DNA of 64,000 nucleotides from Spirochaetota bacterium (lineage in GTDB: Bacteria; Spirochaetota; UBA4802; JAGODF01). The stretch spans positions 217 to 64,216 of the forward strand of contig JARKUF010000014.1 of assembly GCA_029974015.1 (NCBI GenBank), written 5' to 3'. How positions within the stretch are numbered: the stretch's first letter is position 1; each line of letters begins with the position of its first letter. Positions 2,916 through 60,587 of the stretch are shown piece after piece. The position numbers and the translations under genes are program-made. The notes below the pieces were generated by a model. The model did not search any database, had not been told where the DNA came from, and saw nothing but the letters and a program-made list of their open reading frames with translations.

Positions 2916-3980
2916 ATGGCAACTGTGAAACACTTCATCGGTATTGCGTCGCTCCTCATCTTCGCCATTACTCTGCCATGCGATGGAATACTTGCCATGG
3001 CCCTGAGGGCGCATCGGCCGCAGGAAAAGATAAAGGTGTTTTACACTGAAAGCGACAGCAGTGGATGGACCGCCGTTCCCCGCGGCGAGGTGCACTCTAT
3101 CGGCGTTCGCGAGGACGCGCATAGCCAGGAACTCATGAAGTTTGCCCAGAGCAATAGCCGCGCCACAGTGCGGCTTTACAGCTCCGAAGGACTCAGGAAA
3201 GGCGATGAGCTCTTCGTGGTGAATGCGAGGAATCTGGTGGTCGCCAGGATAGACGTGAAGCTCATTTATCAAGACCATTCCTTTGGACCCATGCTCATCG
3301 GCTACGGGAACTTCAGGTATGCCGGTGTTGGATTCAAAGTGGTCCAAAAAGTGGACGATGCCTATTCAAAGTACGCCTACATCTACAAAGCGCGTGGCGA
3401 TTACTTTAAAAGGAACGGGGAATACGCGAAAGCCATTGAATTATACAAGAAGTCGATAGAGATGGACAGGCGATATCCAGAGGCCCATTCCGCACTTGGA
3501 TATCTGTACCTGCGCGATGAGATGATGCCCTTCGCGATGAAGGAGTTTTCCGAAGCCTACCGTGAAATAGACAGAATCTACGATAACGAGGAGAAATACA
3601 TGCTTCTCAAAGGGCTGACGACGACCAGGTACAGAATGGCCTATGAATATACAATACCGGCCGCAGACCGAAAAAAATACATCTCCGAGGGAATTAAGTA
3701 CGCCGAAGAGGCCCTGAAAATTTTTCCCGGGTCCCGGGACATGAACCTCTACCTGGGCATCTTTTACTATAGGGGACCTGAGCCTCAGGACGTGAAGGCA
3801 AAAAACCAGTTTCAGAAACTCTTAGAAATCGACCCTCTCAATGCCACGGCCTGCCTGGCCCTTGCGGAACTCTACAGGAAGCACGACAATCCACAGAAGG
3901 CCCGAATGTATGCCCGTAAGGCCCTGGAAGCCCGCCCCGACAGCGTAGAAGCCCGCCGTCTGCTCGATAGCTTACAGTAG
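2916..3980 (+). CDS. TPR repeat protein with signal peptide
   Basis: ATG overlaps the upstream stop (TGAcATG). C-terminal half has TPR-like repeats (YKARGDYFKRNGEYAKAIELYKKSIEMD..., ALAELYRKHDNPQKARMYARKALE). Confidence 0.7.
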   Translation: MATVKHFIGIASLLIFAITLPCDGILAMALRAHRPQEKIKVFYTESDSSGWTAVPRGEVHSIGVREDAHSQELMKFAQSNSRATVRLYSSEGLRKGDELFVVNARNLVVARIDVKLIYQDHSFGPMLIGYGNFRYAGVGFKVVQKVDDAYSKYAYIYKARGDYFKRNGEYAKAIELYKKSIEMDRRYPEAHSALGYLYLRDEMMPFAMKEFSEAYREIDRIYDNEEKYMLLKGLTTTRYRMAYEYTIPAADRKKYISEGIKYAEEALKIFPGSRDMNLYLGIFYYRGPEPQDVKAKNQFQKLLEIDPLNATACLALAELYRKHDNPQKARMYARKALEARPDSVEARRLLDSLQ

Positions 3981-4035
3981 GCAGCTCTCGACATTAAGTT
4001 TACCGGAAATTCTTAATACTGACAAACTCAGAACT

Positions 4036-4110
4036 GGCAACCTCTAATAATTGCGATTTCCTGCCTGCTTTCGTCCGGCTGGAAATCCTGAGTTCGGAAT
4101 ATGCCGATAT
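4036..4110. repeat. Intergenic modular hairpin repeat (copy R1, inverted orientation)
   Basis: ggcaacctctaataatt + degenerate GC hairpin + cctgagttcggaatatgccga. This is the reverse complement of the 'tcggcatactcagga ... aattattagaggttgcc' unit seen at other loci. Confidence 0.75.
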
Positions 4111-4409
4111 CTAGTTTATATACATGGAACATACAACTTCCGATAATATATATTATGTCGCATAAGAAAAAGTATCTCTAAAACTCCCTGCACTTAATTT
4201 AAACCCGCTTTGCCGTCGTTCTGTAAAACCTGATAATGCTGTGCCCTGCGATATTGGCAGGTTTTAAGCTGTCTTTAATATGACTCTGTGCCTGCCCACC
4301 TCCATCCCCTGACGGGCCCCTCCCGCTATTTTGGCTATCGGCGCTAAAAAAAGATCTTGCAAAAAAACCGTAGTACTATACATTTGTATTGTAAAAGCAG
4401 TCTCAAATA

Positions 4410-4600
4410 ATCAGGTTGGGAAAACCTGGATCCTGAGTATGCCAGTATTTACATTTTATGGAAACTTTAAAAATTTAAGGCAGCCATAAAAATTGCGATT
4501 TCCCGCCCGCCTTCGGCGGGCGGGAAATCGCAATTCCTGAGTGTGGCCTCACATGAGTTTTTGTGACTGTCCTTAATTTTTAGAGGTTCCCTGGGTTAAC
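4410..4600. repeat. Intergenic modular hairpin repeat cluster (copy R2)
   Basis: Contains a perfect 21-bp-arm hairpin at 4491-4535 (aattgcgatttcccgcccgcc TTCG ggcgggcgggaaatcgcaatt). Also contains 'atcctgagtatgccagt' and 'cacatgagtttttgtgactgtccttaatttttagaggttccc' modules shared with loci at 14.4 kb and 43.0 kb. Confidence 0.85.
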
Positions 4601-4617
4601 CTGGAGGCCTTTTTGCG

Positions 4618-5058
4618 ATGCACGAACGCGATACCATGCCGACCGCCATGTATGGGTTTCAACGCACCGGATGGATGGAGCTTCCTTTTCTTCTGGCCTC
4701 CATCCCCGCGGGGTTTCCTTCCCCGGCCGACGACTACATCGACCGAAAGCTCGACTTAAACGAGCTTCTGGTCCGGCATCCGGCGGCCACCTTCTTCGTT
4801 CGCGTCGTCGGCGACTCCATGACGGGCGCGGGAATCCGCTCCGGAGACATTCTTGTGGTGGACCGGGCCCTTGCGCCGGAGAACAACCGCATCGTCATCG
4901 CCGCCCTCAATGGGGAGCTCACGGTGAAACGCCTCAGGAAACAGAGTGGCCGGATTTTCCTGGTCCCGGAGAACGGCGAGTATGAGGCGATGGAGGTGAC
5001 GCAGGAGATGCAGTTCGAGATATGGGGCGTCGTGGCCCATGTAATCCATTCTCTCTGA
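4618..5058 (+). CDS. umuD: LexA/UmuD-like S24 peptidase (translesion polymerase accessory subunit)
   Basis: 146 aa. S24 fold motifs VGDSMTGAGIRSGDILVVDR and Lys-containing GELTVKRL. Immediately upstream of a Y-family polymerase gene, 7 nt apart. Confidence 0.8.
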   Translation: MHERDTMPTAMYGFQRTGWMELPFLLASIPAGFPSPADDYIDRKLDLNELLVRHPAATFFVRVVGDSMTGAGIRSGDILVVDRALAPENNRIVIAALNGELTVKRLRKQSGRIFLVPENGEYEAMEVTQEMQFEIWGVVAHVIHSL

Positions 5059-5064
5059 GGCCCC

Positions 5065-6330
5065 ATGTTCGCCCTTGTGGACTGCAATAATTTCTACGTC
5101 TCCTGCGAGCGGGTTTTTATGCCCTCCCTGGAAGGAAGGCCCGTGGTGGTGCTTTCAAACAATGATGGAAACGTCGTGGCCCGCTCCAATGAGGTGAAAG
5201 CCCTGGGGCTGGAGTTCGGCGCCCCCTATCATAAATGCAGGGATTTCATAGCCCGTTACGGCGTGCAGGTTTTTTCTTCCAATTACGCGCTCTATGGGGA
5301 CCTGTCCCTTCGCGTTATGGAAACCCTCGCCCGCTTCTCGCCATCCATGGAAATCTACTCCATCGACGAGGCCTTCCTGCACCTCCCCTCGTCCCGGCGC
5401 TTCGACATCATGGAATGGGGCTCCCGGATCAGGGCCACGGTGCGGCAGTGGACCGGCATTCCCGTTTCCATAGGCATCGGCCCCACAAAGACCCTGGCAA
5501 AGTTGGCCAACCGCCTGGCGAAAAAGCGCTTCCCTGACCGGGGTGTCTTCGATATCAGCGGCTGTACGGACATGGATGACCTTCTGGAAAGCGTGTTCGT
5601 CGGGGACATCTGGGGGATCGGGCACAGCTACTCGGCCATGCTCGCCCGCCATGGCGTAACCAACGCGAGGCAGTTTCGTGGCCTTCCGGACCACTGGATA
5701 AAAAAGCGGATGACCGTCACGGGCCTGCGTACGGCCTGGGAACTCAGGGGGCGCCCCTGCCTCGACCTGGAGGAAATGGCGCCGCCCCGGAAAGGCATCG
5801 TGAGCTCACGTTCTTTCGGTAGGCCCGTGGAATCCCTGGGGGAGCTCAGGGAAGCCCTGGCCTCCTATGTGGGGCGCGCCGCCGCAAAGCTACGCCGCCA
5901 GGGCTCCGCAGCCTCCTTTCTGGGGGTTTTTCTGGCCACCAACCGGTTCAAGGCGGAACCCCAGTATTCCAACTTCACTGCGGTTCGCCTTCCCGTTCCC
6001 TCCTCATACACTCCGGAGCTTCTGGTCCCCGCCCTGGCCTGCCTGGAATCGATATACCGCCCCGGTTTCCGCTACAAAAAAACCGGGATAATGCTCTCGG
6101 AGATCGTGGCGGAGTGCGACGCTGTGCGGAGCCTCTTCGAGGACCAGGGGGCTTCGGGACGCAAACGGCGCCTCTCCGAGACCGTGGACCGGATCAACGG
6201 CCGACTCGGCGCGGGGCGGCTCTTCTATGCCGCCGAGGGCATGGGGAAATCCTGGCAGATGCGCCGCTCCCTTCTTTCGCCTGCCTACACAACGAGATGG
6301 AGCGAAATTCCCGTGGTAAAGGCGCTGTGA
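5065..6330 (+). CDS. umuC: Y-family DNA polymerase (UmuC/DinB-like)
   Basis: 421 aa. N-terminus [18 protein letters not shown] and [18 protein letters not shown] match the UmuC/DinB palm domain. Adjacent to the umuD-like gene. Confidence 0.85.
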
Positions 6331-6381
6331 GCTTTAAAATTATACTTGCTCCTCTGGCAGTTTTCCCAATAAGTTACGGGA

Positions 6382-6939
6382 ATGCGCACCCGGCAAAATG
6401 AACATGAAAGAGTACCGAACGAGATGGAATGCCGTAAACTCATGGAAGAATACGGCATGCTCCCGAACATCGTGGCGCATTCACTTCAGGTGATGAAGGT
6501 GGCCCTGGCCATCGTTGATGGTCTCGTCAATCCCAAAGCCGTTGACAGAGGCCTCATTATAGCCGGGGCGCTTCTCCACGACATTACCAAGACCCGCTCC
6601 CTCGAAACGAAGGAGCGCCACGACGTGACCGGTGCGGAACTCCTCCGGTCCCTGGGCCTGCCCTCTCTGGCCTGCATAGTGGAGCAACATGTTTTCTTCA
6701 CGGATTTCGATCCCGATGGCCCTCTGGAGGAGCGCGAGGTCGTCTACTACGCCGACAAGCGCGTCATGCACGAACGTATCGTGTCCGTGGACCGGCGCGT
6801 GGAGGACCTCCTGGAACGATACGGGACCACGCCCGAACGCCGGGAGAGCATCATCAAAAATAAGGCTTTAGTACTCCGCATCGAAAGAAAAATTAATAGC
6901 TTTCTGAGGGTCGATATCGCCCGCATAGCGGGTGAATAA
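6382..6939 (+). CDS. HD domain phosphohydrolase
   Basis: 185 aa with H...HD motif (AHSLQVMKVA...LLHDITK). Confidence 0.7.
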   Translation: MRTRQNEHERVPNEMECRKLMEEYGMLPNIVAHSLQVMKVALAIVDGLVNPKAVDRGLIIAGALLHDITKTRSLETKERHDVTGAELLRSLGLPSLACIVEQHVFFTDFDPDGPLEEREVVYYADKRVMHERIVSVDRRVEDLLERYGTTPERRESIIKNKALVLRIERKINSFLRVDIARIAGE

Positions 6940-6965
6940 AGGACCTCCCGGAGGGAAACTCGCCA

Positions 6966-7289
6966 CTAATATTTTTTTCTTTCCTTGTCGTGGTTGAGAC
7001 GGTTCATGATGAAAACCGCGATATAGCCGCCCACGAAACCGGCGATGATGTTCACACCGGCGTCCCTGGCGAGAAACGAGAGGATTTTTACAGTGATGTC
7101 GTAGAGGAACTTGTCAAGGATAAAGGCCCCGATGAGGGCCCCGATGACGCCGACTACGAACCCGCCGATATATCCACCGAAGAGGTCCCTCTTTTTATAG
7201 TAATAGAATATCCATGCAACGGCGGCGCCGATGATGAGGATGATGAAAATCGATTTTATCAATACCCACAATTCCTGAAGTCCGCCCAT
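6966..7289 (-). CDS. GlsB/YeaQ/YmgE (transglycosylase-associated) family membrane protein
   Basis: 107 aa with glycine-zipper TM helices (GGYIGGFVVGVIGALIGAFIL). Preferred over the overlapping + strand ORF 6990..7304, which is low-complexity and acidic. Confidence 0.7.
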   Translation of the reverse strand: MGGLQELWVLIKSIFIILIIGAAVAWIFYYYKKRDLFGGYIGGFVVGVIGALIGAFILDKFLYDITVKILSFLARDAGVNIIAGFVGGYIAVFIMNRLNHDKERKKY

Positions 7290-7336
7290 AACACACCTCG
7301 CTAAAATAATTCATCGATGGGGGCCTGTGCCGTTTT

Positions 7337-7948
7337 TCACAGGAAAAAAAGCTCGCCCTTCCCTTCCCGGATGATTTTCATCTCGTCGCCCGAAAAATCC
7401 AGGATTGTTGAAGGATCGGAAATTTTTGGCCCGCAGTCGATTATTATGTCAACTTCATTTTTGTGCCGCTTTTCCAGGTCGCTCGGCTCAATGACATAGG
7501 CACCGTCGGCGGCGCTTACGCCGGCGGAGAGGATGGGCCTTCCCAGGGAGTTTACCAGGGCCAGGGGAATCCGGTGGTCCGGAATTCGCACGCCGATGGT
7601 CTTCTGGTTGGTTATGGCTATTTTTGGGACGAGCCTGGAGGCCTTGAAAATGAAAGTGTACGGCCCGGGAAACGCCTTTTTCATGATTTTAAATGCGGCG
7701 TCGGAAATATTCCTGACATATTCATGAAGCTGGCTGATGTCCGAAAAAATAAAGCTTAAAGGCTTGTTTCGAGGAATTTTTTTGATGGAATAAATTCGTT
7801 CGATGGCATGGCGCTCCTTGATGTCACAGCCATAGGCATATACCGTGTCCGTAGGATACACGACGACTCCGCCTTCCGACAGAACGCCCGATACTCGTTT
7901 AATGAGCCTTTCCTGCGGGTTGCGTTCATTTATTTCAAATACTTTCAT
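7337..7948 (-). CDS. tsaC: L-threonylcarbamoyladenylate synthase (YrdC/TsaC family)
   Basis: 203 aa. YrdC-domain signature VVVYPTDTVYAYGCD and RIYSIKKIPRNKPLSF. Confidence 0.85.
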   Translation of the reverse strand: MKVFEINERNPQERLIKRVSGVLSEGGVVVYPTDTVYAYGCDIKERHAIERIYSIKKIPRNKPLSFIFSDISQLHEYVRNISDAAFKIMKKAFPGPYTFIFKASRLVPKIAITNQKTIGVRIPDHRIPLALVNSLGRPILSAGVSAADGAYVIEPSDLEKRHKNEVDIIIDCGPKISDPSTILDFSGDEMKIIREGKGELFFL

Positions 7949-7999
7949 AAGTTTGCTTTTATAGAGGACATCGCCCTATTCTATAATCGGATTATAAAA

Positions 8000-8195
8000 G
8001 GGAAGCTCTAAAAATTAAATTTTTGAATTCCCCATAATTTGTTACTGCTGGCATGCTCTGGGCTTAAGTTTACCCGCCCGCCGCGAGCGGGTAAACCTAA
8101 TTTTTAGAGGTTGCCAAATGTAACTTATAACAGGCTAAGCGCTTAAATTTTTTCCTTCCGCCTTCGGCGGTCGGAAAATTGGAGTACCGGAGCTT
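8000..8195. repeat. Intergenic modular hairpin repeat cluster (copy R3)
   Basis: Palindromic AT-cored module gggaagctctaaaaattaaatttttgaattcccc. Then ttgttactgctggcatgctctggg, hairpin gtttacccgcccgccgcgagcgggtaaac and tail taatttttagaggttgcc. A second hairpin tttccttccgccTTCGgcggtcggaaaa follows. Confidence 0.85.
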
Positions 8196-8498
8196 CCATT
8201 CCCCGGCGAAAATAGAGTAAAAAAAAGGCTTTTGCAAGAGTGTCCCTTGCAAAAGCCTTCAACCTGGTAATGTAACAATAGGAGTGCCGGCGATATATGC
8301 AATTAATCGGTTTTTAACGAGTTTGTCTTAACAGTTTTTTACCTCCAAAATCTAACTTTTTGTGAAAAATGGACCGAATGATTCAATCCTTCTAAATTCT
8401 CTTCTGGTAAAAATATCTCCACCGTTTTCCACCAGCCGAAAACTGGCGGGAAAGTATCAGGAGAGAAAGCCTTCCTATAAATTCAGCTTTACAATCGT

Positions 8499-9368
8499 TT
8501 GCGGCAGATATGGAATGGCAAATCCTGCGCCCCATTAAGGCGCTCATTGCCATTATTAGTGCCATCTATGAGCAATTCCAAACCAATGTACGCAAATGAC
8601 GCACCCTTGCCTCCCTTCCGCGGTTTCAGAGCTTGGGAATATTCCGATGGGGTGTTCTCCGAGGTCGAGGTGAACCTGAGCATGGAGCATTCCCTTACTC
8701 TCTCCCTCAATGGAACCCCTTACATCACTATCGCCTGTTCCGGATCGGACATGAGAGAGATGGCGGCGGGCCATCTTCTCACCGAGGGAATCATCTCGAA
8801 TCCGGGAGATATCCTTTCAATGACGTTTGACGGGGATTCCATGACCCTCAATGTGGAAATTGGGCGGAACGATGGCATGCTGGAATGTATTCGCAATAAC
8901 CGCAGATTTCCCCGGGAATCCTCTTCTGGAGGAGAAGTGGTTCGGCAACCTTCGGGACGCACCTCAATTGCGGCTCGAACGGTCCTTCCCATGATGAATG
9001 AATTTCTTCAACACTCTCCCCTGCACCACCTTACCCATGGAGTCCACAGCGCCGCCCTTTTTACCGCGGAGGGGAAACGCCTTTCATTTTTTGATGAGAT
9101 AGGGCGCCACAATGCCATCGACAAGGTCCTGGGACATGCCCTCCTCAACGGCATCGATCTTTCGGACAAGGTCGCGGCAACAACGGGTCGGGTGGCAAGT
9201 GAAATCATAATAAAGTTCATACGCGCTTCGGTCCCAATTGTCGTTTCCCGTGCTGTTCCAACAAGCCTGAGCCTCGAACTGGCAATACGGCATGGCATCG
9301 TGCTGGTAGGCAGAGCGCGGGAATCATCATTCACTGTGTTCAACGGAAAGTGGGCGCTCACGCCATGA
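8499..9368 (+). CDS. fdhD: Formate dehydrogenase accessory sulfurtransferase FdhD
   Basis: 289 aa. FdhD signature IACSGSDMREMAAGHLLTEG and C-terminal GRARESSFTV. The true start may be the internal Met at about 8568. Confidence 0.8.
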   Translation: MRQIWNGKSCAPLRRSLPLLVPSMSNSKPMYANDAPLPPFRGFRAWEYSDGVFSEVEVNLSMEHSLTLSLNGTPYITIACSGSDMREMAAGHLLTEGIISNPGDILSMTFDGDSMTLNVEIGRNDGMLECIRNNRRFPRESSSGGEVVRQPSGRTSIAARTVLPMMNEFLQHSPLHHLTHGVHSAALFTAEGKRLSFFDEIGRHNAIDKVLGHALLNGIDLSDKVAATTGRVASEIIIKFIRASVPIVVSRAVPTSLSLELAIRHGIVLVGRARESSFTVFNGKWALTP

Positions 9369-9445
9369 TTTGCAGAGCTTGTGGACAGGGTACGATCTTC
9401 ATTTTTTTGCTGGAACCGATGAAATAAGGTATATTATTGAAGTAT

Positions 9446-9555
9446 GGGAACCTCTTAAAAAATAAATTTTTGGGGTTCCCATAAATTGTTACTGCCGGCA
9501 TACTCAGGATTTGGGTTTTCCCGCCGGCGGGAAAACCCAATTATTAGAGGTTGCC
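9446..9555. repeat. Intergenic modular hairpin repeat (copy R4, complete exemplar)
   Basis: gggaacctcttaaaaaataaatttttggggttccc (palindrome) + ataaattgttactgccggcatactcaggat + gggttttcccgccggcgggaaaaccc (hairpin) + aattattagaggttgcc. Ends 43 nt before the relA ATG. Confidence 0.9.
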
Positions 9556-9597
9556 GTATGTTAAAAAAATAATGAAGACTGGCGGTGTTAGTGCTGA

Positions 9598-11631
9598 ATG
9601 CCCGATATTGAACTGAAAATTAGAAGCAGGGACATCGACACACTGATCGATACCATACGGCGGAACGTACAGGACGCCGATATCGACCTCATTCGCCGGG
9701 TCTACGAGTACTCTGAAAAGTCCCATAAAAAACAGCTACGCCTATCCGGTGAGCCCTACATCATCCACCCCATGGAGGTGGCAATAATCCTTGCCGGGAT
9801 AGGCCTCGATACCACGACAATCGCCGCGGCCCTTCTGCATGATGTAGTGGAGGACACGGGGAGCACCACGGAAGACATCACACGCCTCTTCGGGGAGGAC
9901 ATTGCCCTCCTGGTTGAAGGCGTGACAAAAATATCCTCCCTGAAAAAACAGTCGAAATCGAAAGAACAGGCACACAATCTTCGAAAGATGCTCCTTGCTA
10001 CTATCAAAGACGTCCGTGTCATTCTTATAAAGCTCGCCGACAAGCTACACAATATGCGGACCATCATGTTTCAGCCCGAAGCCAAACAGAGGGTGATAGC
10101 CCAGGAAGTATTGGACATCTACGCCCCCCTGGCTGGAAGGCTCGGAATTTCCAAGATCCGTTCAGAGCTTGAGGACCTGGCGTTCCACTGTCTTCACCAC
10201 GATGAGTATCACGAGATCGCAAGCAAGGTGGTGCGGCAAAAGCAAAAAACCGAGGAGTTTCTGGAATCGATACGGTCGATCCTTTTAAAAAAATTCGAAG
10301 AACTAAAGATTTCCGCAATAATCACCGGGCGGGTGAAGCACCACTATTCCATTTTTAGAAAAATGAACCGACAGAACAAAACCTTCGAGGATATTTTCGA
10401 CATACGCGCCATCAGGATCATCACCGATGAGATACGGGACTGCTACGGAATACTGGGTATCATCCACACCCTATGGGCGCCCATTGCTTCGCGCTTTAAG
10501 GATTACATAGCGGTGCCGAAATCGAACATGTACCAATCCCTCCATACTACGGTGATAGGTCCCGACAGCCATCCCCTGGAAATTCAAATCCGGACACCGG
10601 AAATGCACGCCACGGCGGAGAATGGAATTGCCGCCCACTGGCTCTATAAGGAGCAACAGGGAGAGGCCCATAACGGATACCGAGACCTCACGATCATCAA
10701 GAACCTGGACAAACTCGAAGACGAAACGGACACCCGGGAGTTCATGAAAGAACTCAAAATGGACCTCTACGAGGACGAGATTTTCGTCTTCACTCCGAAG
10801 GGGAAAATTGTGAAGCTCGCCTCGGGGTCCACGCCTGTCGATTTCGCCTACGCCATCCACTCCGAGGTCGGTTCACACTGCACCGGAGCAAGAGTGAACA
10901 ACATGATGGTGCCCTTGAAGACGCGCCTGAAAAGCGGGGACATCGTGGAGATAATGACAAGCGCCAAGGGGCATCCATCGGAATCTTGGCTGAAATTTGT
11001 CCGTTCATCCAATGCCAGATATAAAATCAGGAGCTATCTGCGGCGCACCGGCAAGCCGGAAAGAGAGAGGGAGCGGCGGGAAGAGGCGCCGAAGCCGGAG
11101 CAGTCGGTGGAAGTGACGATCCCCGAAAAGGACCTCATCAAGATTAAAAAGGTCAATCTGAAAAGCAGAGTAGGCCTTACCATCGACGGAAATTCCAACG
11201 TGCTCATAAGGCTTTCCCAGTGCTGTCAGCCCATACCGGGCGACGATGTCGTTGGCTTCATTACCAGGGGCCGCGGCATCACCGTCCATAAGAAAAACTG
11301 CCCTTCTCTGAAACGGATGCGCATGGAAAAGGAGCGGTTCATTAACATCAAATGGGAAGAGGAATACGGCTCGAACACATATCCCGTGAAACTCCATGTG
11401 TACGGTTTCGACAGGCCTAACCTCCTAAAAGACCTTGCCGAGGAGATATCCCTCCGCGAATCTAATATCCTCAAGGTCGAGGCCCAGGTTGTAGAAAACG
11501 CCAACGCGGAATTTAAAATGGTCCTTGAGGTGCGCAACATAGATCACCTGAACAAAATCATCAAACATCTCCTAACCATAAAAAACATCACCAATGTGTA
11601 CAAGGTCAACGAAAAAGTTGTGCTGAAATGA
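9598..11631 (+). CDS. relA: Bifunctional (p)ppGpp synthetase/hydrolase RelA/SpoT
   Basis: 677 aa. HD hydrolase motif (HPMEVA...LLHDVVEDT), synthetase domain (DIRAIRIIT, RFKDYIAVPKSNMYQSLHTTV), TGS and ACT-like C-terminus. Confidence 0.9.
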   Translation: MPDIELKIRSRDIDTLIDTIRRNVQDADIDLIRRVYEYSEKSHKKQLRLSGEPYIIHPMEVAIILAGIGLDTTTIAAALLHDVVEDTGSTTEDITRLFGEDIALLVEGVTKISSLKKQSKSKEQAHNLRKMLLATIKDVRVILIKLADKLHNMRTIMFQPEAKQRVIAQEVLDIYAPLAGRLGISKIRSELEDLAFHCLHHDEYHEIASKVVRQKQKTEEFLESIRSILLKKFEELKISAIITGRVKHHYSIFRKMNRQNKTFEDIFDIRAIRIITDEIRDCYGILGIIHTLWAPIASRFKDYIAVPKSNMYQSLHTTVIGPDSHPLEIQIRTPEMHATAENGIAAHWLYKEQQGEAHNGYRDLTIIKNLDKLEDETDTREFMKELKMDLYEDEIFVFTPKGKIVKLASGSTPVDFAYAIHSEVGSHCTGARVNNMMVPLKTRLKSGDIVEIMTSAKGHPSESWLKFVRSSNARYKIRSYLRRTGKPERERERREEAPKPEQSVEVTIPEKDLIKIKKVNLKSRVGLTIDGNSNVLIRLSQCCQPIPGDDVVGFITRGRGITVHKKNCPSLKRMRMEKERFINIKWEEEYGSNTYPVKLHVYGFDRPNLLKDLAEEISLRESNILKVEAQVVENANAEFKMVLEVRNIDHLNKIIKHLLTIKNITNVYKVNEKVVLK

Positions 11632-12260
11632 GAGTAATCCTCGCTTCAACATCGCCGAGGCGAAAAACCATCTTGGAAAGCGTCATCCCTTCTTTCGAAA
11701 TCATCGCCCCCTGTGTCGACGAATCGTCATTCACCTGGGAAAAACCCCACAGCCACACAGAAAGGGTTTCAGCGATGAAAGCGGAATATGCCCTATCCAG
11801 CTCGGGGCGAGGCGGCGAAATCCTGGTTATCGCCTCCGACACTATCGTCACTTATGAGGGCAGGATCATCGGAAAACCCGCCGATTACGAGGATGCCGTG
11901 CTCACCCTCACTGCTTTAAGCGGGAAAACTCACTCCGTAGTGACGGCGGTCACTATCATCCACGATAAAGGGATGCTGAAAAGGGCCACGTCCTCGGAGG
12001 AAACGTCCGTGACTTTTAGAAAACTCGATGGGGAAGCGATTCGGAAGTACCTTTCCCTTGTCGAATACGCCGACAAGGCCGGTTCCTACGCCGTCCAGGA
12101 GTACGGGGAGATGATCGTCGCGTCATTGCGGGGTTCCCTTACAAACGTGATCGGCTTCCCCCTCAGGAAGTTTTTCGCCATGCTGGCGGACCTCGGTCTC
12201 TTAAATCGTGTTTTCCCCGGCCCGGAAGCCCATTTGCCCAACCCTACAATGAGGCCGTGA
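11628..12260 (+). CDS. maf: Maf-like nucleoside triphosphate pyrophosphatase
   Basis: 210 aa, MRVILASTSPRRKTILE ... VIASDTIV. Its ATG overlaps the relA stop (ATGA). Confidence 0.85.
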   Translation: MRVILASTSPRRKTILESVIPSFEIIAPCVDESSFTWEKPHSHTERVSAMKAEYALSSSGRGGEILVIASDTIVTYEGRIIGKPADYEDAVLTLTALSGKTHSVVTAVTIIHDKGMLKRATSSEETSVTFRKLDGEAIRKYLSLVEYADKAGSYAVQEYGEMIVASLRGSLTNVIGFPLRKFFAMLADLGLLNRVFPGPEAHLPNPTMRP

Positions 12261-12293
12261 GAAAGGGCTTGACACTGCCGCCTGTCTCTGTTC

Positions 12294-13433
12294 ATGTCGA
12301 CTCTGCATATCCGCTGTCCAACTGATGTTAGCAATAATTCCGAGGTATTTATGATATATTCTCGCATTGTCGGTACGGCATCCTCCCGAATTATCCGGGC
12401 GGTGTTGTTCTCGGTCATGGTTCTCTGTTTGTACGTGACCGAAAGTGTTTGTGCACCAGCGAAGGCCTCAGCGCAAACGGCCCACAATTCCCTATTGGAA
12501 CTCTTCAAGGGCACGCCGGAGGAAAAGGTCACGCCCACCAGATGGGAAATAGGAAATACTATAATCTCAAATGAGGACAGGCTGGAGCTTTTCAAGGCTT
12601 CAGTGGAAAACCTCGGAGGCGGGTACGTGGGACTTGGGGGCACCCAGAATTTTCTCCTCGCTTCATGGGCCGGTTCAGAATGGATGTGGCTCTTCGATTT
12701 CACCTCCAGGGTCGTCATGGCAAACAGGATACATGTGGCATTTCTAAAAAATGCAACGACTCCCCGGGAGTTTAGAGAGCTTTGGATGAAAAAATCCAAA
12801 AAAAAGGCGATGGAGATAATCGATACAGAGTTTGCGAAAGACCCGGAGCTTCAGTATGCGAAGAAAACATGGAACATCGGCCTCGGGTATATTCCCTGGA
12901 GGTTCCGTAACCTCGACCGCGTCACGAAAAAATACGGCTACAAGATATGGCTCAACGACCAGACCTATTTCGACAGGGTGCGGAATCTGGCCCTTCAAAA
13001 CCGCATCATCGCAAGGAAGGGAAACCTCAACGGCACGGTGACGCTTCTCGGCATCGCTGAAACGGCGAAGAAAATGGGCGTCCCGATTCGCATAGTATAC
13101 CTCTCGAACGCCGAAGAGTATATCAGCAATTACCAGGAACAGTACCGTAAAAATTTCATTGCCATGCCCGTTGACGCAAAGTCGGTCCTGCTCAGGACGA
13201 ATTCTGTGTTCCGCACTCTTTTCCCATGGGCCCCCGACTCTGAAATTTCCACCGATAAAGGTTTTCATTACAATGTGATGCCCATGCAGGTTTTCCAGGA
13301 ATGGCTTTCCCTTCCACTCCAAAAGCTTAGAGTTGTCGATATGATGAAACACGGAGAAGTTGATAAAAAAAACGGCTTCAGCGTGGTTAAAGCCGTTCCT
13401 GAATGCGTGAAAAAAGACCCGGGAGTGAAATGA
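12294..13433 (+). CDS. Hypothetical secreted protein
   Basis: 379-aa ORF with an N-terminal hydrophobic segment and coding-like composition. No confident family assignment. Stop is 1 nt before the FGE-family gene start. Confidence 0.5.
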   Translation: MSTLHIRCPTDVSNNSEVFMIYSRIVGTASSRIIRAVLFSVMVLCLYVTESVCAPAKASAQTAHNSLLELFKGTPEEKVTPTRWEIGNTIISNEDRLELFKASVENLGGGYVGLGGTQNFLLASWAGSEWMWLFDFTSRVVMANRIHVAFLKNATTPREFRELWMKKSKKKAMEIIDTEFAKDPELQYAKKTWNIGLGYIPWRFRNLDRVTKKYGYKIWLNDQTYFDRVRNLALQNRIIARKGNLNGTVTLLGIAETAKKMGVPIRIVYLSNAEEYISNYQEQYRKNFIAMPVDAKSVLLRTNSVFRTLFPWAPDSEISTDKGFHYNVMPMQVFQEWLSLPLQKLRVVDMMKHGEVDKKNGFSVVKAVPECVKKDPGVK

Positions 13434-13434
13434 A

Positions 13435-14307
13435 ATGTCGCATCGCATCTCTCCCTTTATCGCTTCGTCGATAACATCAATAGCCCTCGCAACGCACTTT
13501 GCCTGCGGCGCCGTAGGCGGCACTTCGGATGCCGGCCACATCGATTGTGCATGCCTGGAAGTCCCTCAAGGCATGAAGTGCATTCCCGGCGGCGTATTTA
13601 TACGAGGAAGCAACCGAACAACTGTCGACGAAGACAGCGGCAGGAAGGTTAAAGATGAGTATCCAGAGGGCCCAGTCGAAGTAAGCACTTTTTTTATGGA
13701 TACCGATGAAGTAACCTTTGCAAACTACCAGGAATGCGTGAAGGCGAAAGCCTGTCCACCGGCAAGGCCTAATTATCGGGGATACAGCCGGGCGAACCAG
13801 CCGATGCTGGGCGTCAACTGGTACCATGCCCGGGATTACTGCCGATGGAAGGGAAAGCGCCTACCCACGGAAGCAGAATGGGAAAAAGCGGCCCGTGGCG
13901 ATCACGGAGAGCTGTACCCATGGGGTAACGAAAAACCGGATTGCACCAGGGCGATCATCCAGGAAAAGAAAGTAAAAGGATGCGGGAAAGGCACCACCTG
14001 GGACGTAGGCTCCCGCCCGGCCTACCGTTATGGTTTACGTGACATGGCAGGTAACTCCTGGGAATGGGTCAACGATTGGTACAGCCCCGACTACAAGGAG
14101 TGTGGGGCTCTATGTTTCGGCAGAGACCCACGGGGTCCCTGCAATGGCGCTGAAAAATGCCCTGGTCACACCAAAAAAATCGTACGTGGAGGTTCGTGGT
14201 GGTGGGACGGCCCCTATGCCCTGGGGCATAACCGTCGGCCCCATTATCCTTCGAACAAGCCTTATCACCATTTCGGTTTCAGATGCGCCAAAACGGCAAA
14301 GTATTAA
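13435..14307 (+). CDS. Formylglycine-generating enzyme (SUMF1/FGE-sulfatase) family protein
   Basis: 290 aa. FGE-family motifs MAGNSWEWVNDWY and RGGSWWWDGPYALGHNRR. N-terminal lipoprotein/signal-like segment. Confidence 0.8.
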   Translation: MSHRISPFIASSITSIALATHFACGAVGGTSDAGHIDCACLEVPQGMKCIPGGVFIRGSNRTTVDEDSGRKVKDEYPEGPVEVSTFFMDTDEVTFANYQECVKAKACPPARPNYRGYSRANQPMLGVNWYHARDYCRWKGKRLPTEAEWEKAARGDHGELYPWGNEKPDCTRAIIQEKKVKGCGKGTTWDVGSRPAYRYGLRDMAGNSWEWVNDWYSPDYKECGALCFGRDPRGPCNGAEKCPGHTKKIVRGGSWWWDGPYALGHNRRPHYPSNKPYHHFGFRCAKTAKY

Positions 14308-14376
14308 GGACTGCAAATGACATTTTTTATTGACGTGGAGCCTTGATAGGCCTATACTACATTATTATTGAGTTAT

Positions 14377-14465
14377 GGCAATCTCTAATATTAGGCTTTC
14401 CCGCCCGCCTTCGGCGGGCGGGAGAATGAAGTTTTTGTGACTGCCCTTAATTTTAAGAGGTTCCC
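14377..14465. repeat. Intergenic modular hairpin repeat (copy R5)
   Basis: ggcaatctctaatatt + hairpin ctttcccgcccgccTTCGgcgggcgggaga + gtttttgtgactgcccttaattttaagaggttccc. Confidence 0.85.
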
Positions 14466-14523
14466 TTATATTGTTCCTTGCTGTAATATTTTTCGAATCG
14501 TGTAATTTTGGAATTGTAACACC

Positions 14524-15123
14524 ATGTTCAAGGGTGGAAACGTGAAAAAAGAGATAAATTTTCTCGACAGCTTTTCCGCTGACACCTCAATCATCCCAAA
14601 TATTATTAATAACCTCATGAAAAATCTTGAGGTTATGGATTATCCACGCGAAGAGATCGATGAAATTGTCCTTTCCATGGACGAAGCCATTACCAACGCC
14701 GTACAGGAGACAATACGGAAAAAATGCGATTCTGCACCTAAAGAACCATGCTGTGAACAGCGGGAAATCACCATCAGATACAATATTACGTCATTCAATT
14801 TTGATGCAACCATCATCGACCGCGGTTGCGGTCTTGACATAGACTCCCTTGTGGGTATCATCCCCGACAGTTCCGCCGTCGATTATCATAATCAAATTGT
14901 TCGATATGCGACAGAGTCCGAACGAAAAAAGCTCATCGTCCGCGTTAATGGAAAGGAAATCATATTGAAGGGGATCGGAGCGGGGTTAAAAATAATACTC
15001 GCCTTTATGGACAATATAACTATCGACCTCATCGATAAAAAAAAGATTATCTCAAACAGCGTTTCCGAATTTACCGACGGCACTATCCTCAATATCAAAA
15101 GGCGTAGACGGTATTCTCCATGA
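14524..15123 (+). CDS. Anti-sigma regulatory factor-like GHKL ATPase (RsbW/SpoIIAB-like)
   Basis: 199 aa. N-box-like LSMDEAITNAVQE and G-box-like GIGAGLKIILAFMD. Translationally coupled to the next gene (ATGA). Confidence 0.6.
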   Translation: MFKGGNVKKEINFLDSFSADTSIIPNIINNLMKNLEVMDYPREEIDEIVLSMDEAITNAVQETIRKKCDSAPKEPCCEQREITIRYNITSFNFDATIIDRGCGLDIDSLVGIIPDSSAVDYHNQIVRYATESERKKLIVRVNGKEIILKGIGAGLKIILAFMDNITIDLIDKKKIISNSVSEFTDGTILNIKRRRRYSP

Positions 15124-15884
15124 CGTTGAGGGCCCGGAAAGCGTACGACAACCAGGATTTTCTCAACTCCCGGGATGCGCGCACCGTGAGGATACTTTGC
15201 GAATACCTGGAACCGGAAAAGAGGCTCGAAGATTGCGAAGTGTCGAATACCGTTGTCTTTTTCGGGTCCGCAAGGCTGGGTCCGGAAGGCGCCGCGGGAG
15301 AACGAATGGAGGGGTATTATTGGGCTGCGGAAGAGCTCGCGTTTCGCCTTGCCACCTGGTCGAAAACGATGGCGAAAAAGGAACATATGTTTCATGTGTG
15401 TACGGGGGGCGGGCCCGGTATTATGGAAGCGGCCAACCGGGGCGCCAGGCGCGCCGGCGCCGATACCATAGGCTACAATATCTCTCTCCCTTTTGAACAG
15501 CATCCTAACGAATTTATTTCGGAAAAACTTAATTTTGAGTTTCACTATTTTTTCATGAGAAAGCTCTGGTTCATATACCACGCAAAGGCCGTCATCGTAT
15601 TTCCGGGAGGATTTGGAACTTTTGACGAACTTTTCGAGATCCTCACTTTGAAGCAGACGAAAACACTTGAAAAAGCGGAAATCCCCATACTTCTATACGA
15701 TGAGATATTTTGGCGCGAAATGGTGAATTTTGAAGGGCTCGCAGAGCGCGGACTTATATCACATGAGGACCTAAACATCTTTCACTACGTTTCAAGTCCC
15801 GAAGAGGGGTTTGAATACCTTAAGCCGCGACTTATTAGTTTGATTGATGATGTCAACGGCATATTCCATGATGGGAACCCCTAA
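15120..15884 (+). CDS. LOG family (TIGR00730, Rossmann-fold nucleotide-binding) protein
   Basis: 254 aa. LOG signatures GGGPGIMEAANRGA and PGGFGTFDELFE. Its last codons and stop (ggg aac ccc taa) lie inside repeat copy R6. Confidence 0.8.
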   Translation: MTLRARKAYDNQDFLNSRDARTVRILCEYLEPEKRLEDCEVSNTVVFFGSARLGPEGAAGERMEGYYWAAEELAFRLATWSKTMAKKEHMFHVCTGGGPGIMEAANRGARRAGADTIGYNISLPFEQHPNEFISEKLNFEFHYFFMRKLWFIYHAKAVIVFPGGFGTFDELFEILTLKQTKTLEKAEIPILLYDEIFWREMVNFEGLAERGLISHEDLNIFHYVSSPEEGFEYLKPRLISLIDDVNGIFHDGNP

Positions 15885-15922
15885 AAATTGGTTTTTAGTA
15901 TCCCATAATATTTGACGTTGCC
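15873..15922. repeat. Repeat fragment (copy R6) overlapping the LOG gene stop codon
   Basis: gggaacccctaaaaattggtttttagtatcccataatatttgacgttgcc. Palindromic AT-cored module plus a 'cccataa..ttgcc' tail. Shares the gggaacc...aaaaatt...ttttag pattern with R3, R4 and R10. Confidence 0.7.
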
Positions 15923-15957
15923 TGAAGTTTGATACATTATTCTCAATTGTCACCGGG

Positions 15958-16650
15958 GTGCACATGAAAAAGGTATTTATCTGCGCCGTTCTCTTGGTCG
16001 CTTTTTTGTTCGGGACCCGGGAATCTTCACTCCAGGGCGGACCCCGTTACAAAAAACACAGGAACGGCACATTCAATTATGAAATAATCGTACCTGCGCG
16101 CTGGCAGACCGACGAAGTAACCCTGGAAAAAAAGCATATCTTCCTCGCCTGCCGGGGCAGACATGAAATTAAAGTCAGGGCCTTTTTGTCGGAAAACCCG
16201 AAAATTGACTCGGTTATCCATAAACGAAGCTGGAACCTCAGGGAGATCGATCCCCTGTTGAACAGGATCCTGGAAACTGAAAAGATATCCGTGAAAAAGA
16301 ACGTTGAGGGAAAACTCCTCGTTTTTGAGTATCGATCTCACCGCAAGAAGATGCTCATGAGGACCATGGTACGCCGTGAAAACAATACAATATATATTAT
16401 TGACTGCAAATCTCCGGTGGATGGTTTTTACAGAAACGAGGAGGCTTTCAATATAGCCCTTTCAAGCTTCAAAATCCTTTCCGGCGGCGCGGAAAACGGC
16501 CAGGATGAGAGCGGGCGCCTGGAAGAGGAAGAAGGGCTTGCCAGCTTTTCCGATGGGGAAACCGATAAGGACACGCCCGTAAGATCAGGAGAGCGCAAGG
16601 TTACACCGAAGGGGCAGTTCTTTGAGGAACAATTCTTCGAAATGGATTAG
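15958..16650 (+). CDS. Hypothetical secreted/lipoprotein
   Basis: 230 aa with a signal peptide (MHMKKVFICAVLLVAFLFG) and an acidic Gly/Glu-rich C-terminus. No family assigned. Confidence 0.5.
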   Translation: MHMKKVFICAVLLVAFLFGTRESSLQGGPRYKKHRNGTFNYEIIVPARWQTDEVTLEKKHIFLACRGRHEIKVRAFLSENPKIDSVIHKRSWNLREIDPLLNRILETEKISVKKNVEGKLLVFEYRSHRKKMLMRTMVRRENNTIYIIDCKSPVDGFYRNEEAFNIALSSFKILSGGAENGQDESGRLEEEEGLASFSDGETDKDTPVRSGERKVTPKGQFFEEQFFEMD

Positions 16651-16696
16651 CCCCGGAGAAGATGTCCTCTGCCCGGATACACGCCATACCCCGCTG

Positions 16697-16781
16697 TGCC
16701 CAAGGCCGGACTTGAACCGGCACGGACAAAAAGCCCAAGGGATTTTAAGTCCCTTGTGTCTACCTATTCCACCACTTGGGC
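16697..16781 (-). tRNA. tRNA-Leu (anticodon TAA)
   Basis: Reverse complement reads GCCCAAGTGGTGGAATAGGTAGACACAAGGGACTTAAAATCCCTTGGGCTTTTTGTCCGTGCCGGTTCAAGTCCGGCCTTGGGCA. Cloverleaf has a long variable arm, anticodon loop CTTAAAA and T-loop GGTTCAAGTCC. Confidence 0.85.
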
Positions 16782-16843
16782 GACGAATCCTCTTTCTTCT
16801 TTTCAATTTCGACTTTTATATTATTCCTACTATTCCTAATTGA

Positions 16844-16963
16844 GGGAACCGCTTAAACTTATATTTTTAAGATTATTAAAAATTGTAATTACTGGCAGAC
16901 TCAGAACTTGGGTTTTCCCTCCCGCCGAAGGCGTGCGGGAAAACCCTATAATTGGAGGTTGCC
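16844..16963. repeat. Modular hairpin repeat (copy R7) between two tRNA genes
   Basis: gggaaccgcttaaacttatatttttaag + aaaaattgtaattactggcagactcagaa + cttgggttttccctcccgccgaaggcgtgcgggaaaaccc + tataattggaggttgcc. Ends 7 nt from the tRNA-Cys 3' end. Confidence 0.85.
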
Positions 16964-16970
16964 TTAATTT

Positions 16971-17043
16971 AGGCGCCGAGCGGATTCGAACCGCTGAATA
17001 AAGGTTTTGCAGACCTCTCCCTTAGCCACTTGGGTACGGCGCC
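16971..17043 (-). tRNA. tRNA-Cys (anticodon GCA)
   Basis: Reverse complement reads GGCGCCGTACCCAAGTGGCTAAGGGAGAGGTCTGCAAAACCTTTATTCAGCGGTTCGAATCCGCTCGGCGCCT. Acceptor stem GGCGCCG/CGGCGCC, anticodon loop CTGCAAA and T-loop GGTTCGAATCC. Confidence 0.8.
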
Positions 17044-17230
17044 GTGCGAACAGCCCTTCGTTTTTTTCATGAACATGAAAAGTATCACAGCAGGTAATGT
17101 CAACAATATTTTCCGGGCCGGAGTTCATCAAAAAAATGGTCGGTATTACATATACGCCCTATGCAAAATGTCTTACATGAGTTCTGAGAAAAATAAAACG
17201 ACCCCGTTTAGGTATTGCACAAAATAAATA

Positions 17231-17276
17231 GGGAACCCCAAAATTTTTAGGTAGCACTTGGGTTTTCCAGGTTGGG
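17231..17276. repeat. Degenerate repeat fragment (copy R8) in AT-rich leader
   Basis: gggaaccccaaaatttttaggtagcacttgggttttccaggttggg. Shares gggaacc..aaaattttt and cttgggttttcc with other copies. Confidence 0.5.
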
Positions 17277-17511
17277 ATAAAACAATTGCTGAGCAGACTT
17301 GCGAATTTTCAAGAATAATGGGTTCAAAGCAACTGTATTCTCCTGTACTAAGGCTACAAAAAAAGCGGATAAAAATGAGCTTCTTCAGTATCAAAACAGG
17401 TATAACTATTGACAACTTGGATTCCTGCTTCAAGATTGGCCCAGGTTGGGCCTTATATTAAAGGATACATAGCGATGGGCTATAACTAACACACTTCTAC
17501 AGGAGGTATTT

Positions 17512-26997: not shown

Positions 26998-28356
26998 ATG
27001 TTAATTACATATGTATTTGTTTTCGTTATACTTATAATTGTGACGATTTTTGTCCTCTATATCCTGTCAACATATGTTTTTCCCAGGAAAATTGAGGAAA
27101 TCGCACGCATGGTGGAAAACGGGCAGACGAAACTTGCTATAAAGAAACTTATGGAGTTAATAGAGAAGGATGACCGGAACGCTTATGCCCGCTACCTTCT
27201 TGCCGAAGCCTATTTTAAAGAAAATAACATACAATACGCAATTCTCGAATACCGCCAGGTACTGAAGCTCGCAAAATTCGACGACAAAGTCAATGAAATC
27301 AAGATCAGGTCAAAATTGGCCAAAATATACATGGATCGAAAATCAATCGACGAGGCCAGGAAGGAATATTTGATACTGTCAAAAATTGATCCGATGAACT
27401 TCCAGCATTTTTACGAGCTGGGTCTCATTTATTTCAACGCGGACCAACACGAAAAGGCCACGCCATATTTCAAAAAATCAGTCGCATTGAACAATAATCA
27501 CGCCATGTCGCTCTACTTCCTCGGCCAGATATACTATCGGATGAACCTCTACCAGGATGCAAAGCAGATGTTTCTTGAGGCAATTAAAGTTGATCATGCG
27601 AATTACCGCTCCCATTATTTTTTAGGTTTGGTTCTTCGCCAGCTTGGCGATTATGAGTGGGCCATTAAGGAATTCGAAGTGGCCCAAAAAGACGACGATA
27701 TAAAGATTAAATGCTTCCTTGCCAAAGGAACGTGCTTCATTGAGAAGGAGCTGTATCCCAAGGCCATCATCGAGTTTGAACGGGGCCTGAAATTTGCGAA
27801 GAGGGGAAGCGACACGGAATTGAACCTCAGATACTTCCTTGCCGAGGCACAGGAAAAGATGCGTGATCTCCACTCGGCAATATCCAACTGGGAAAAGATC
27901 CATGAGGTGAACAAAAATTTCCGTGATGTACAGGAGAAGCTGAAATCGTATTCGGAATTCCGCCAGGATGACCGGATAAAGGATTTCATGATAGCTGGAC
28001 TTGCCCAGTTTGAACATCTAACCAGGAAAATCGTTGAAACAATGGGGCTCACCATTCTGGATATTGACATTATCAGCGACACCGACATAGAAATTATTGC
28101 GACCGAAACCGAAGGGAAATGGCGGAACACAAGAAAGACCAACAGAATAATAAGGATCATCCGCACTACGGACACTATATCCGACAAGCTGCTAAGATCC
28201 ATTCATGAAACGATGAAACCGAAAAATGCAACACGCGCCGTGATTATTTCCACCGGCGAATACAGCCAGACTGCCGTGGAATTCTCCAACACAAGGCCCA
28301 TCGAGCTTATGAGTAAAAACGAGCTTATAAAGCTTTTGAAACATGTTGGCGCCTGA
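26998..28356 (+). CDS. TM-anchored TPR protein with C-terminal Mrr_cat-like (restriction endonuclease fold) domain
   Basis: 452 aa. N-terminal TM helix, about 7 TPR-like repeats, and a C-terminal segment FEHLTRKIVETMGLTILDIDIISDTDIEIIATE...RIIRIIRTTD...RAVIISTGEYSQTAVEFS...IELMSKNELIKLL that aligns to the Mrr_cat pattern. AT-rich codon usage. Confidence 0.6.
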   Translation: MLITYVFVFVILIIVTIFVLYILSTYVFPRKIEEIARMVENGQTKLAIKKLMELIEKDDRNAYARYLLAEAYFKENNIQYAILEYRQVLKLAKFDDKVNEIKIRSKLAKIYMDRKSIDEARKEYLILSKIDPMNFQHFYELGLIYFNADQHEKATPYFKKSVALNNNHAMSLYFLGQIYYRMNLYQDAKQMFLEAIKVDHANYRSHYFLGLVLRQLGDYEWAIKEFEVAQKDDDIKIKCFLAKGTCFIEKELYPKAIIEFERGLKFAKRGSDTELNLRYFLAEAQEKMRDLHSAISNWEKIHEVNKNFRDVQEKLKSYSEFRQDDRIKDFMIAGLAQFEHLTRKIVETMGLTILDIDIISDTDIEIIATETEGKWRNTRKTNRIIRIIRTTDTISDKLLRSIHETMKPKNATRAVIISTGEYSQTAVEFSNTRPIELMSKNELIKLLKHVGA

Positions 28357-30773: not shown

Positions 30774-30893
30774 TGGTAGCCTCAAAAATTTAATTTTTGA
30801 GGCTACCATAAATTGTAACTACTGGCATACTCAGGACTCAGGTTTTCCCGCCCCCCGAAGGCGGGCGGGAAAACCTGATTATTAGAAGTTGCC
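30774..30893. repeat. Modular hairpin repeat (copy R10, complete)
   Basis: tggtagcctcaaaaatttaatttttgaggctacca (palindrome) + taaattgtaactactggcatactcaggactcagg + ttttcccgccccccGAAGgcgggcgggaaaacc + tgattattagaagttgcc. Confidence 0.9.
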
Positions 30894-30982
30894 TTATGTA
30901 AATGTTTCGTTATTATTTTTTAGGTCTTATAAAAAAACATCCGTTTGAGCTGTAAAATCGATTTTCTACTCGGAGGAAATAA

Positions 30983-42810: not shown

Positions 42811-42837
42811 ACGTAAAAAGCCCCAAGATGAGTATAT

Positions 42838-43075
42838 GCAACCTCTTAAAATCAGGTTTTTCCGACCGCCGAGGGCGGACGGAAAAACCTAAGGACAGTC
42901 ACAAAAACTTTGTTTACCCGCCCGCCTTCGGCGGGCAGGTAAACCTGAGTCCTGAGTATGTCAGCAGCTACAATTCATAAGACCTCTAAAAATTTATTTT
43001 TTTGAGGTCTCACATGAGTTTTTGTGGCTACCCCTAATTATTAGAGGTTGCCATAATTGAATTTTGGAGGTTCCC
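42838..43075. repeat. Largest modular hairpin repeat cluster (copy R11)
   Basis: gcaacctcttaaaatcagg; hairpin tttttccgaccgccGAGggcggacggaaaaa; cctaaggacagtcacaaaaactttg; hairpin tttacccgcccgccTTCGgcgggcaggtaaa; cctgagtcctgagtatgtcagcagctacaattcataag; palindrome gacctctaaaaatttatttttttgaggtc; tcacatgagtttttgtggctacccctaattattagaggttgcc; ataattgaattttggaggttccc. Confidence 0.9.
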
Positions 43076-60540: not shown

Positions 60541-60587
60541 TTTTAGCGAACCCCGGCGGGCGGGTAAACCCGATTAACAGAGGTCGC
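60541..60587. repeat. Repeat fragment (copy R14)
   Basis: ccccggcgggcgggtaaacccg (half hairpin) + attaacagaggtcgc tail. Confidence 0.55.

Follow-up and report, generated by a model that had tools for sequence, protein, structure and literature searches.

Genomic Setting of the Repeats

The window analyzed here, a stretch of 64 kb with 49.4% G+C, belongs to a metagenome-assembled genome. Its relA gene encodes a protein whose named relatives all come from Spirochaetes or Spirochaetota, and a porin encoded downstream of the window matches the OmpL1 family of Leptospira. The host is accordingly treated here as a probable uncultured member of the Spirochaetota. An initial annotation had described a family of intergenic hairpin repeats in this DNA, assembled from a few modules named P, S, H, X and T. 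The copy chosen as the focus of this study lies between the relA promoter and relA. Other copies are found beside tsaC, between two tRNA genes, behind rnfC and at further places (Table 1).

The minus strand between the repeats next to tsaC and fdhD holds a candidate small RNA (8215–8310) that is conserved in all four relatives with a syntenic locus (L004–L007). It comprises a −35-like TTAAG and a −10-like GATTAT, followed by the invariant sequence CACUCCUAUUGUU, a 17-bp hairpin (8224–8260) and a U8 tail. The CUCCU within CACUCCUAUUGUU resembles an anti-Shine–Dalgarno sequence. No Rfam family matched the candidate, and the repeats at 8000–8195 separate it from tsaC. In L004–L007, tsaC and fdhD are separated by a NifU_N gene. 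The window, in which this interval is 7949–8663, has none, and tblastn gave no match anywhere in it. Because fdhD aligns only from about 8664, the TTG start of the ORF at 8499–9368 probably lies too far upstream. Elsewhere in the window, two paralogous genes (26998–28356 and 33558–35174) encode proteins that carry TPR repeats and, at the C-terminus, an Mrr_cat restriction-endonuclease-like domain.

Table 1. Repeat copies in the window, with module content, flanking tetranucleotides, profile scores and local setting
Position	Strand	Form	Flanks	nhmmer E	Further features
4036–4112	−	Partial: terminus, degenerate H, part of S		~1e-11	
4415–4591	−	Two abutting partial copies: half H–S–half P, then H–X–terminus		1e-15, 5e-12	H hairpin at 4491–4535 with perfect 21-bp stem
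8000–8115	+	Full-length type A	AAAA/AAAT	~1e-31	Promoter-like site (7958–7987) 12 nt upstream; not in L004, L006 or L007
8149–8178		Solo H-type GC hairpin, degenerate		0.002 (H profile)	Repeat family D1, repeat pair I23
9446–9555	+	Focal copy, full-length type A (P–S–H–T), H apex deleted	GTAT/GTAT	4.6e-27 (leave-one-out)	10 nt downstream of TATATT −10 box, relA promoter; fold −49.6 kcal/mol, z = −6.2; empty site in L004
14377–14465	−	Type B	TTAT/TTAT	~1e-10	18 nt downstream of conserved promoter TTGACG-17-TATACT; L006 site empty
15873–15922	+	Mini copy, P + right terminus, 50 nt	TGAT/TGAA		Terminus with 1 mismatch; not in L006 or L007
16844–16963	+	Full-length type A	TTGA/TTAA	~1e-32	Between tRNA-Leu and tRNA-Cys; no copy in L006 or L007, L006 spacer much shorter
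17231–17276	+	Fragment: left terminus + S/H junction			Repeat family D15; in terminus listing; not in L006 or L007
24024–24146	+	Two degenerate H + terminus units, tandem		4e-10, 2e-6	2 nt past stop codon
30775–30893	+	Full-length type A	TTAT/TTAT	~1e-36	13 nt downstream of TTGATT-16-TATAAT; fold z = −10.5
42837–43075	−	Composite locus with long form, terminus–X′–P–S–H–X–terminus		~1e-31 (42894–43008)	Second H hairpin (42854–42890) inside one terminus; extra terminus (43053–43075)
48177–48230	+	Solo left terminus (weak evidence)			Directly past rnfC stop codon; repeat family D11, 77%
58154–58222	+	Minimal copy, single long hairpin		~2e-11	14 nt downstream of TTGACT-18-TACGAT; fold −36 kcal/mol, z = −6.3
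60541–60588	+	Fragment: right arm of H + right terminus		~3e-4	

A Family of Intergenic Repeats

Recurrence of the same building blocks at the loci named in the initial annotation was confirmed by direct reading, a repeat finder, an nhmmer profile and comparison with shuffled sequence. The repeat finder returned families of 5–10 copies and long inverted matches between loci. The nhmmer profile was built from five full-length copies, which it matched at E = 1e-30 to 1e-37, and it found partial copies at nine further places. When models without window copies are counted in, the five full copies score E = 1e-25 to 1e-36. As a safeguard against circularity, the profile was rebuilt without the focal copy and from metagenome copies only. 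The focal copy was recovered in both cases, with E = 5.1e-25 for the model from metagenome copies alone. Fuzzy matches to the modules were 6- to 80-fold more frequent than in shuffled sequence (terminus, 10 versus 1.6; H core, 8 versus 0.9; S, 4 versus 0.05; X, 4 versus 0.1).

The figure of about 14 modular copies needs some qualification. Eleven of the 14 loci are robust (nhmmer E < 1e-3), whereas the three at 15873–15922, 17231–17276 and 48177–48230 are fragments, with good termini but an nhmmer E of at least 0.1 or no match.

Apart from short overlaps with the ends of ORFs, the repeats are intergenic. Of the 20 intergenic regions in the window that measure 60 nt or more, 12 contain a copy, and the repeats make up 1,467 of the 6,472 intergenic nucleotides (23%); no copy was found in the 10 kb past the window end. 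One overlap lies at 15873–15884, where ORF 15120–15884, which encodes a Lysine_decarbox/LOG-like protein, takes its three final codons and its TAA stop from the element terminus GGGAACCCCTAA. The insertion thus remodelled the C-terminus of the protein.

The gene order of the window also occurs in two independent Logan assemblies. One of them, L020, was compared base by base and is free of mismatches to the window across 13.3 kb; the repeats are therefore no artefact of one assembly. Pairwise identity among the copies is 63–90% and gives no hint that they moved very recently.

In the window only three tRNAs reached the Rfam gathering score, and relaxing the threshold to E ≤ 5 for 7900–9700 produced no meaningful match. 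Scans of viral contigs with two patterns and a plasmid BLAST search with the composite locus found no match. The X-module pattern matched genome contigs only twice, in unrelated Bdellovibrionales and Lachnospiraceae genomes, and we take these two matches to be chance.

Organization of the Elements

The units are 35–240 bp long, too short to encode a transposase. Forty-one termini from window and metagenome copies align to the inverted repeat GGSAACCTCTAAWAATTA, and 21 of the 24 consensus positions are the same at left and right ends. This inverted-repeat nature of the ends is a key feature absent from the initial annotation. The terminus is about 17–21 nt long and exists in two types, G (GGGAACCTCTAAAAATTAA) and C (GGCAACCTCTAATAATTAGG).

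Most of the modules can be expressed in terms of these ends. T corresponds to the right terminus, X is an inward extension of a terminus, and P consists of a left terminus abutting an inverted (right) one. S is a spacer and H a GC-rich hairpin; the internal modules are optional, and modules were found in both orientations. The minimal form, at 58154–58222, is terminus–H–terminus (69 nt), while type B, at 14377–14465, is terminus–H–X–terminus. Type A (P–S–H–T) measures about 115–120 nt and is represented by five copies, the focal copy among them. A long form of about 190 nt within 42837–43075 is 87.6% identical over 170 nt to positions 8867–9031 of metagenome contig L010, which argues that the long arrangement itself was propagated. 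The mosaic loci at 4036–4591 and 42837–43075 are not explicable by single insertions.

Most P palindromes are imperfect. In the palindrome at 30775–30807 the 15-bp stem pairs perfectly, and its two arms depart from the consensus (GGTAGCC/GGCTACC versus GGGAACC/GGTTCCC), unlike the right terminus of the same copy, which keeps the family sequence. This stem suggests in-place correction of one arm to the other.

Two further local features were noted on metagenome contigs. L010 carries at 4576–4824, upstream of an ORF without known function, a tandem array of three ~86-nt copies of a divergent subfamily, each unit being terminus–H–terminus with CTCCC/GAGAG outer stems. At 4506–4619 of L016, the 37-nt block GGGAAAACCTAATTATTAAAGGTTGCCTTATAGCAAC, consisting of an element end and its flank, is present twice; this is a segmental duplication and no second insertion.

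Target-Site Duplications and Empty Sites

Complete copies are flanked by a 4-bp AT-rich direct repeat that is specific to each copy. Across 14 elements, the junction tetranucleotides match at 42 of 56 positions, compared with 19.0 ± 4.0 (maximum 28) at 80 other flank offsets. Perfect matches number five, where the controls average 0.15: three are TTAT (14377, 30775 and L016), one is GTAT (the focal copy) and one TTGA (metagenome contig L009). Half of the duplications, including most of the other copies, match at three of the four positions only.

Syntenic loci of relatives were taken via RelA orthologues, with 91% identity for L004 and L005 and 78–79% for L006 and L007. No copy was found in the 49 kb of these four contigs, which cover seven of the sites occupied in the window, nor in 32 kb more from two other Spirochaetota (L023 and L029), a total of about 81 kb of relatives. 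Alignments at the occupied sites show clean gaps in the relatives. For the site at 14377, L006 has GTTTATATT against GAGTTAT-element-TTATATT in the window. Taking the element and one TTAT out of the window sequence yields the empty site; this is the pattern of precise excision, in a comparison between species, not strains.

A metagenome scan with the S–H pattern returned 12 matches at six distinct loci, all of them true members of the family (E = 1e-26 to 1e-35). The loci have 47–58% G+C, and their copies lie in flanks unrelated to the window, with duplications of their own, TTGA and TTAT. One of the metagenome contigs encodes a PurA protein with only Spirochaetota among its named relatives and with no counterpart in NCBI assemblies; this contig therefore probably represents a second host genome.

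No transposase gene with matching termini turned up among the 40 proteins of the window, in the metagenome loci or in the 10 kb past the window end. L016 encodes an IS110-family transposase (4906–5877, minus strand; domains DEDD_Tnp_IS110 and Transposase_20) about 170 nt from a cluster of the repeats. The IS110 family has no inverted termini of this kind and produces no 4-bp duplication. As the mobilizer of the repeats this transposase is implausible, and its gene splits no copy.

The Central Hairpin

The H module was examined in an alignment of 22 hairpins with a 20-pair helix, and sliding of the 3′ partner served as control. In the true register, 84% of the cells are paired, compared with 35–49% in the slid controls. 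Double changes occur in 10 of the 20 pairs, and the covariation score is 0.199 versus 0.03–0.06. The covarying stem reported in the initial annotation is accordingly real.

Its reading as a mark of selection on structure is less secure. The double changes are real, but they are few, common to subfamilies and strand-symmetric; TTTTCC/GGAAAA versus TTTACC/GGTAAA in six copies is an example. The two strands do not differ in how well they fold, and z lies between −4 and −10. The mismatches comprise 8 G-T versus 20 A-C overall, and 5 versus 9 in the inner stem, with no clear strand bias. Moreover, the loop in L018 is flipped relative to its S/T context. From these observations we infer that descent from variant master copies or quasipalindrome correction explains the double changes at least as well as RNA-level selection.

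For the apex, a c(UUCG)g tetraloop had been suggested. The center of the palindrome is CCGCC-TTC/GAA-GGCGG, and minimum-free-energy folds have 3-nt loops. Symmetry and folding both give the triloop CCGCC-UUC-GGCGG, and the tetraloop was rejected.

Position Relative to Promoters and Genes

The copies at 8000, 9446, 14377, 30775 and 58154 lie 10–18 nt downstream of sigma-70-like −10 hexamers. The relA promoter and the promoter at 14330–14358 are conserved in relatives that have no element there. Given the distance from the −10 boxes and the conservation of two of the promoters, these five copies are probably transcribed as structured 5′ leaders. A promoter-like site 8–20 nt from the junction was present for 10 of 22 elements, compared with 15–19% of control intergenic positions; the enrichment is suggestive in what is a small sample. 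We regard the leader position as a consequence of a preference for AT-rich targets near promoters and not as the family's reason to exist, because relatives manage without the elements.

The T module had been described as ending a few nucleotides before start codons. The ATGs concerned, at 9558, 8118 and 30896, lie two nucleotides past T and open only the mini-ORFs MLKK-stop, M-stop and M-stop; the relA start is 43 nt past the end of T. In these three type A copies (9541–9572, 8101–8123 and 30879–30901), the AGAGG of the terminus stands seven nucleotides before the ATG of the flank. The combination may have arisen by chance from a TTAT-G target, or it may form a ribosome-loading mini-ORF. The related statement that P modules abut stop codons applies to two or three loci only (15873 and 48177, plus 24024 with a different module).

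Nor do the copies appear to mark transcript 3′ ends, as had been proposed. At least five T within 8 nt past the stem, counted on either strand, were found for only three of 20 H hairpins, and a consensus terminator scan of 3900–17600 flagged a single hairpin. With T-rich tails this rare, the H hairpins are not intrinsic terminators.

Interpretation and Alternative Explanations

[quoted passage not shown] Here the MITE-like reading of the initial annotation is borne out by the terminal inverted repeats, the 4-bp target-site duplication and the empty orthologous sites. The copies also have the small size of MITEs, for which 50–800 bp is the criterion, and no coding capacity, are dispersed between genes and end in inverted termini longer than the minimum of at least 10–15 bp. 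A sixth hallmark, a partner insertion sequence with the same termini, was absent from the window, the 10 kb beyond it and the metagenome loci. The family appears to be undescribed so far.

A DDE-type transposase encoded elsewhere would bind the termini, and integration would involve a cut staggered by 4 bp in AT-rich DNA, typically at TTAT. The autonomous partner would be expected to carry GGSAACCTCTAAWAAT inverted repeats and 4-bp duplications around its ORF. Variant forms may have arisen by internal deletion, nesting and recombination between similar termini, while the complementarity of the arms could be kept by variant master copies and/or by arm-to-arm correction at the DNA level. Insertion at AT-rich targets adjacent to promoters would have turned copies into the present structured 5′ leaders of relA and of genes for an anti-sigma-like kinase, a STAS protein and a thiolase. 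As a side effect, such leaders may alter mRNA stability or translation.

A bolder version of the MITE hypothesis seems unlikely. In it, the family would be more than selfish DNA: the transposase would target the first 10–20 nt past −10 boxes, i.e. the DNA of open complexes or transcription starts, and selection would keep H complementary as a stabilizer or processing signal at the 5′ end of RNA. The burst of insertions would have rewired, in this lineage, the leaders of regulatory genes: relA and the partner-switching genes of anti-sigma and STAS type.

Explanations that do not involve a MITE family were also weighed. The most serious is a functional RNA or DNA motif (5′-UTR stabilizer, processing site, attenuator/terminator or protein-binding site) selected locus by locus, with mobility secondary or absent. 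The covariation of the H helix, the very stable folds and the placement of five copies where they would form mRNA 5′ ends are all compatible with such a role, as is the co-orientation of four of the five type A copies with the downstream gene. Yet these loci do not need the elements: relatives that share the genes and promoters have none at all. The equal folding of both strands, mismatches without clear strand bias and the flipped loop in L018 do not favor a role in RNA either, and the scarcity of T-rich tails and the lack of an Rfam match even at E ≤ 5 point the same way. This explanation is very unlikely. Transfer as single strands by a RAYT (Y1) enzyme, which would make the hairpins a REP/REPIN family and the rest BIME-like mosaic filler, is highly improbable. 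It draws on the GC-rich, extragenic and imperfectly palindromic character of hairpins that occur in both orientations, and on mosaic loci that recall BIMEs. The IS110 gene adjoining the cluster in L016 could be added, as REPs are known targets of IS110-family elements such as IS621 (work cited in PMC3184786). REP palindromes, however, are 20–40 nt long with a GTAG or CGTC head (PMC3733652). By this criterion the H stems do not qualify: they start with AGGTTTWCCCGCC, i.e. (A)GGTTTWCC, and have neither head. Moreover, Y1 enzymes do not make copy-specific 4-bp duplications or 17–21-nt inverted termini, and no Y1_Tnp domain was found among the 40 window proteins scanned. With no such head and with target duplications foreign to REP/RAYT systems, the REP-like reading of the initial annotation is not supported.

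The last alternative is derivation from IS200/IS605 as a PATE, a type of element that moves as a single strand and inserts 3′ of a fixed tetranucleotide. Many copies are indeed preceded by TTAT-like tetranucleotides, and subterminal as well as internal hairpins are present. The tetranucleotide nevertheless differs between copies (GTAT, TTAT, TTGA) and recurs at the two ends of one and the same copy, so that it is a true duplication, and the ends are inverted repeats, unlike those of IS200/IS605. Of the explanations considered, we find this one the hardest to believe.

Taken as a MITE family, the repeats leave the current understanding of MITEs unchanged. They are an ordinary selfish repeat, notable for copies just past promoters, and a clean example, from an uncultured spirochaete, of a lineage-specific burst of MITEs. 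Their insertions cluster in leaders close to promoters, that of the stringent-response gene relA among them, and offer a testable case of MITEs reshaping 5′ UTRs. For practical purposes, the elements should be masked in gene calling and in promoter and small-RNA prediction, as they occupy about a quarter of the intergenic DNA of the window. Repeats of this density can break or mis-join contigs of metagenome-assembled genomes, and the family profile can be used as a lineage marker in metagenomes.

Comparison with Known Repeat Families

BOX elements and BIMEs likewise combine a few modules in varied number, order and orientation. Their units are without inverted termini or target duplications, and BIMEs are built of REPs moved by RAYT. 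The ERIC/IRU and RUP elements are imperfect palindromes of about 107–127 bp that are intergenic, lie in transcribed regions and have no coding capacity (PMC3184786). They differ from the spirochaete family in having TA flanks and, for RUP, a tie to IS630-Spn1, and no sequence similarity connects them with it.

In a census, spirochaete genomes had low coding density and averaged 145 MITEs each (PMC11602168). The MITEs reported as abundant in Leptospira, Sediminispirochaeta and Treponema come from the same phylum and belong to the same element class as the family described here (PMC11602168). That census covers cultured genera, whereas the present family comes from one uncultured lineage and a few metagenome contigs.

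A close likeness exists to the Correia elements of Neisseria (CREE/NEMIS). Correia elements have a specific 26-bp terminus and a TA duplication. Membership of the present family in this group was rejected, the termini here being GGSAACCTCT... and the duplication 4 bp; the terminus is unrelated, the phylum is another, and the duplicated target is TTAT-like instead of TA. The resemblance is one of design: Correia elements are MITEs of about 100–160 bp with long inverted termini and length variants produced by internal deletion (PMC3184786). They are dense in intergenic DNA, often lie just upstream of genes and are co-transcribed into leaders (PMC3184786). RNase III processing, IHF binding and promoter activity have been shown for Correia elements. 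What distinguishes the spirochaete elements within this common design is a GC-rich central hairpin and a more mosaic order of modules.
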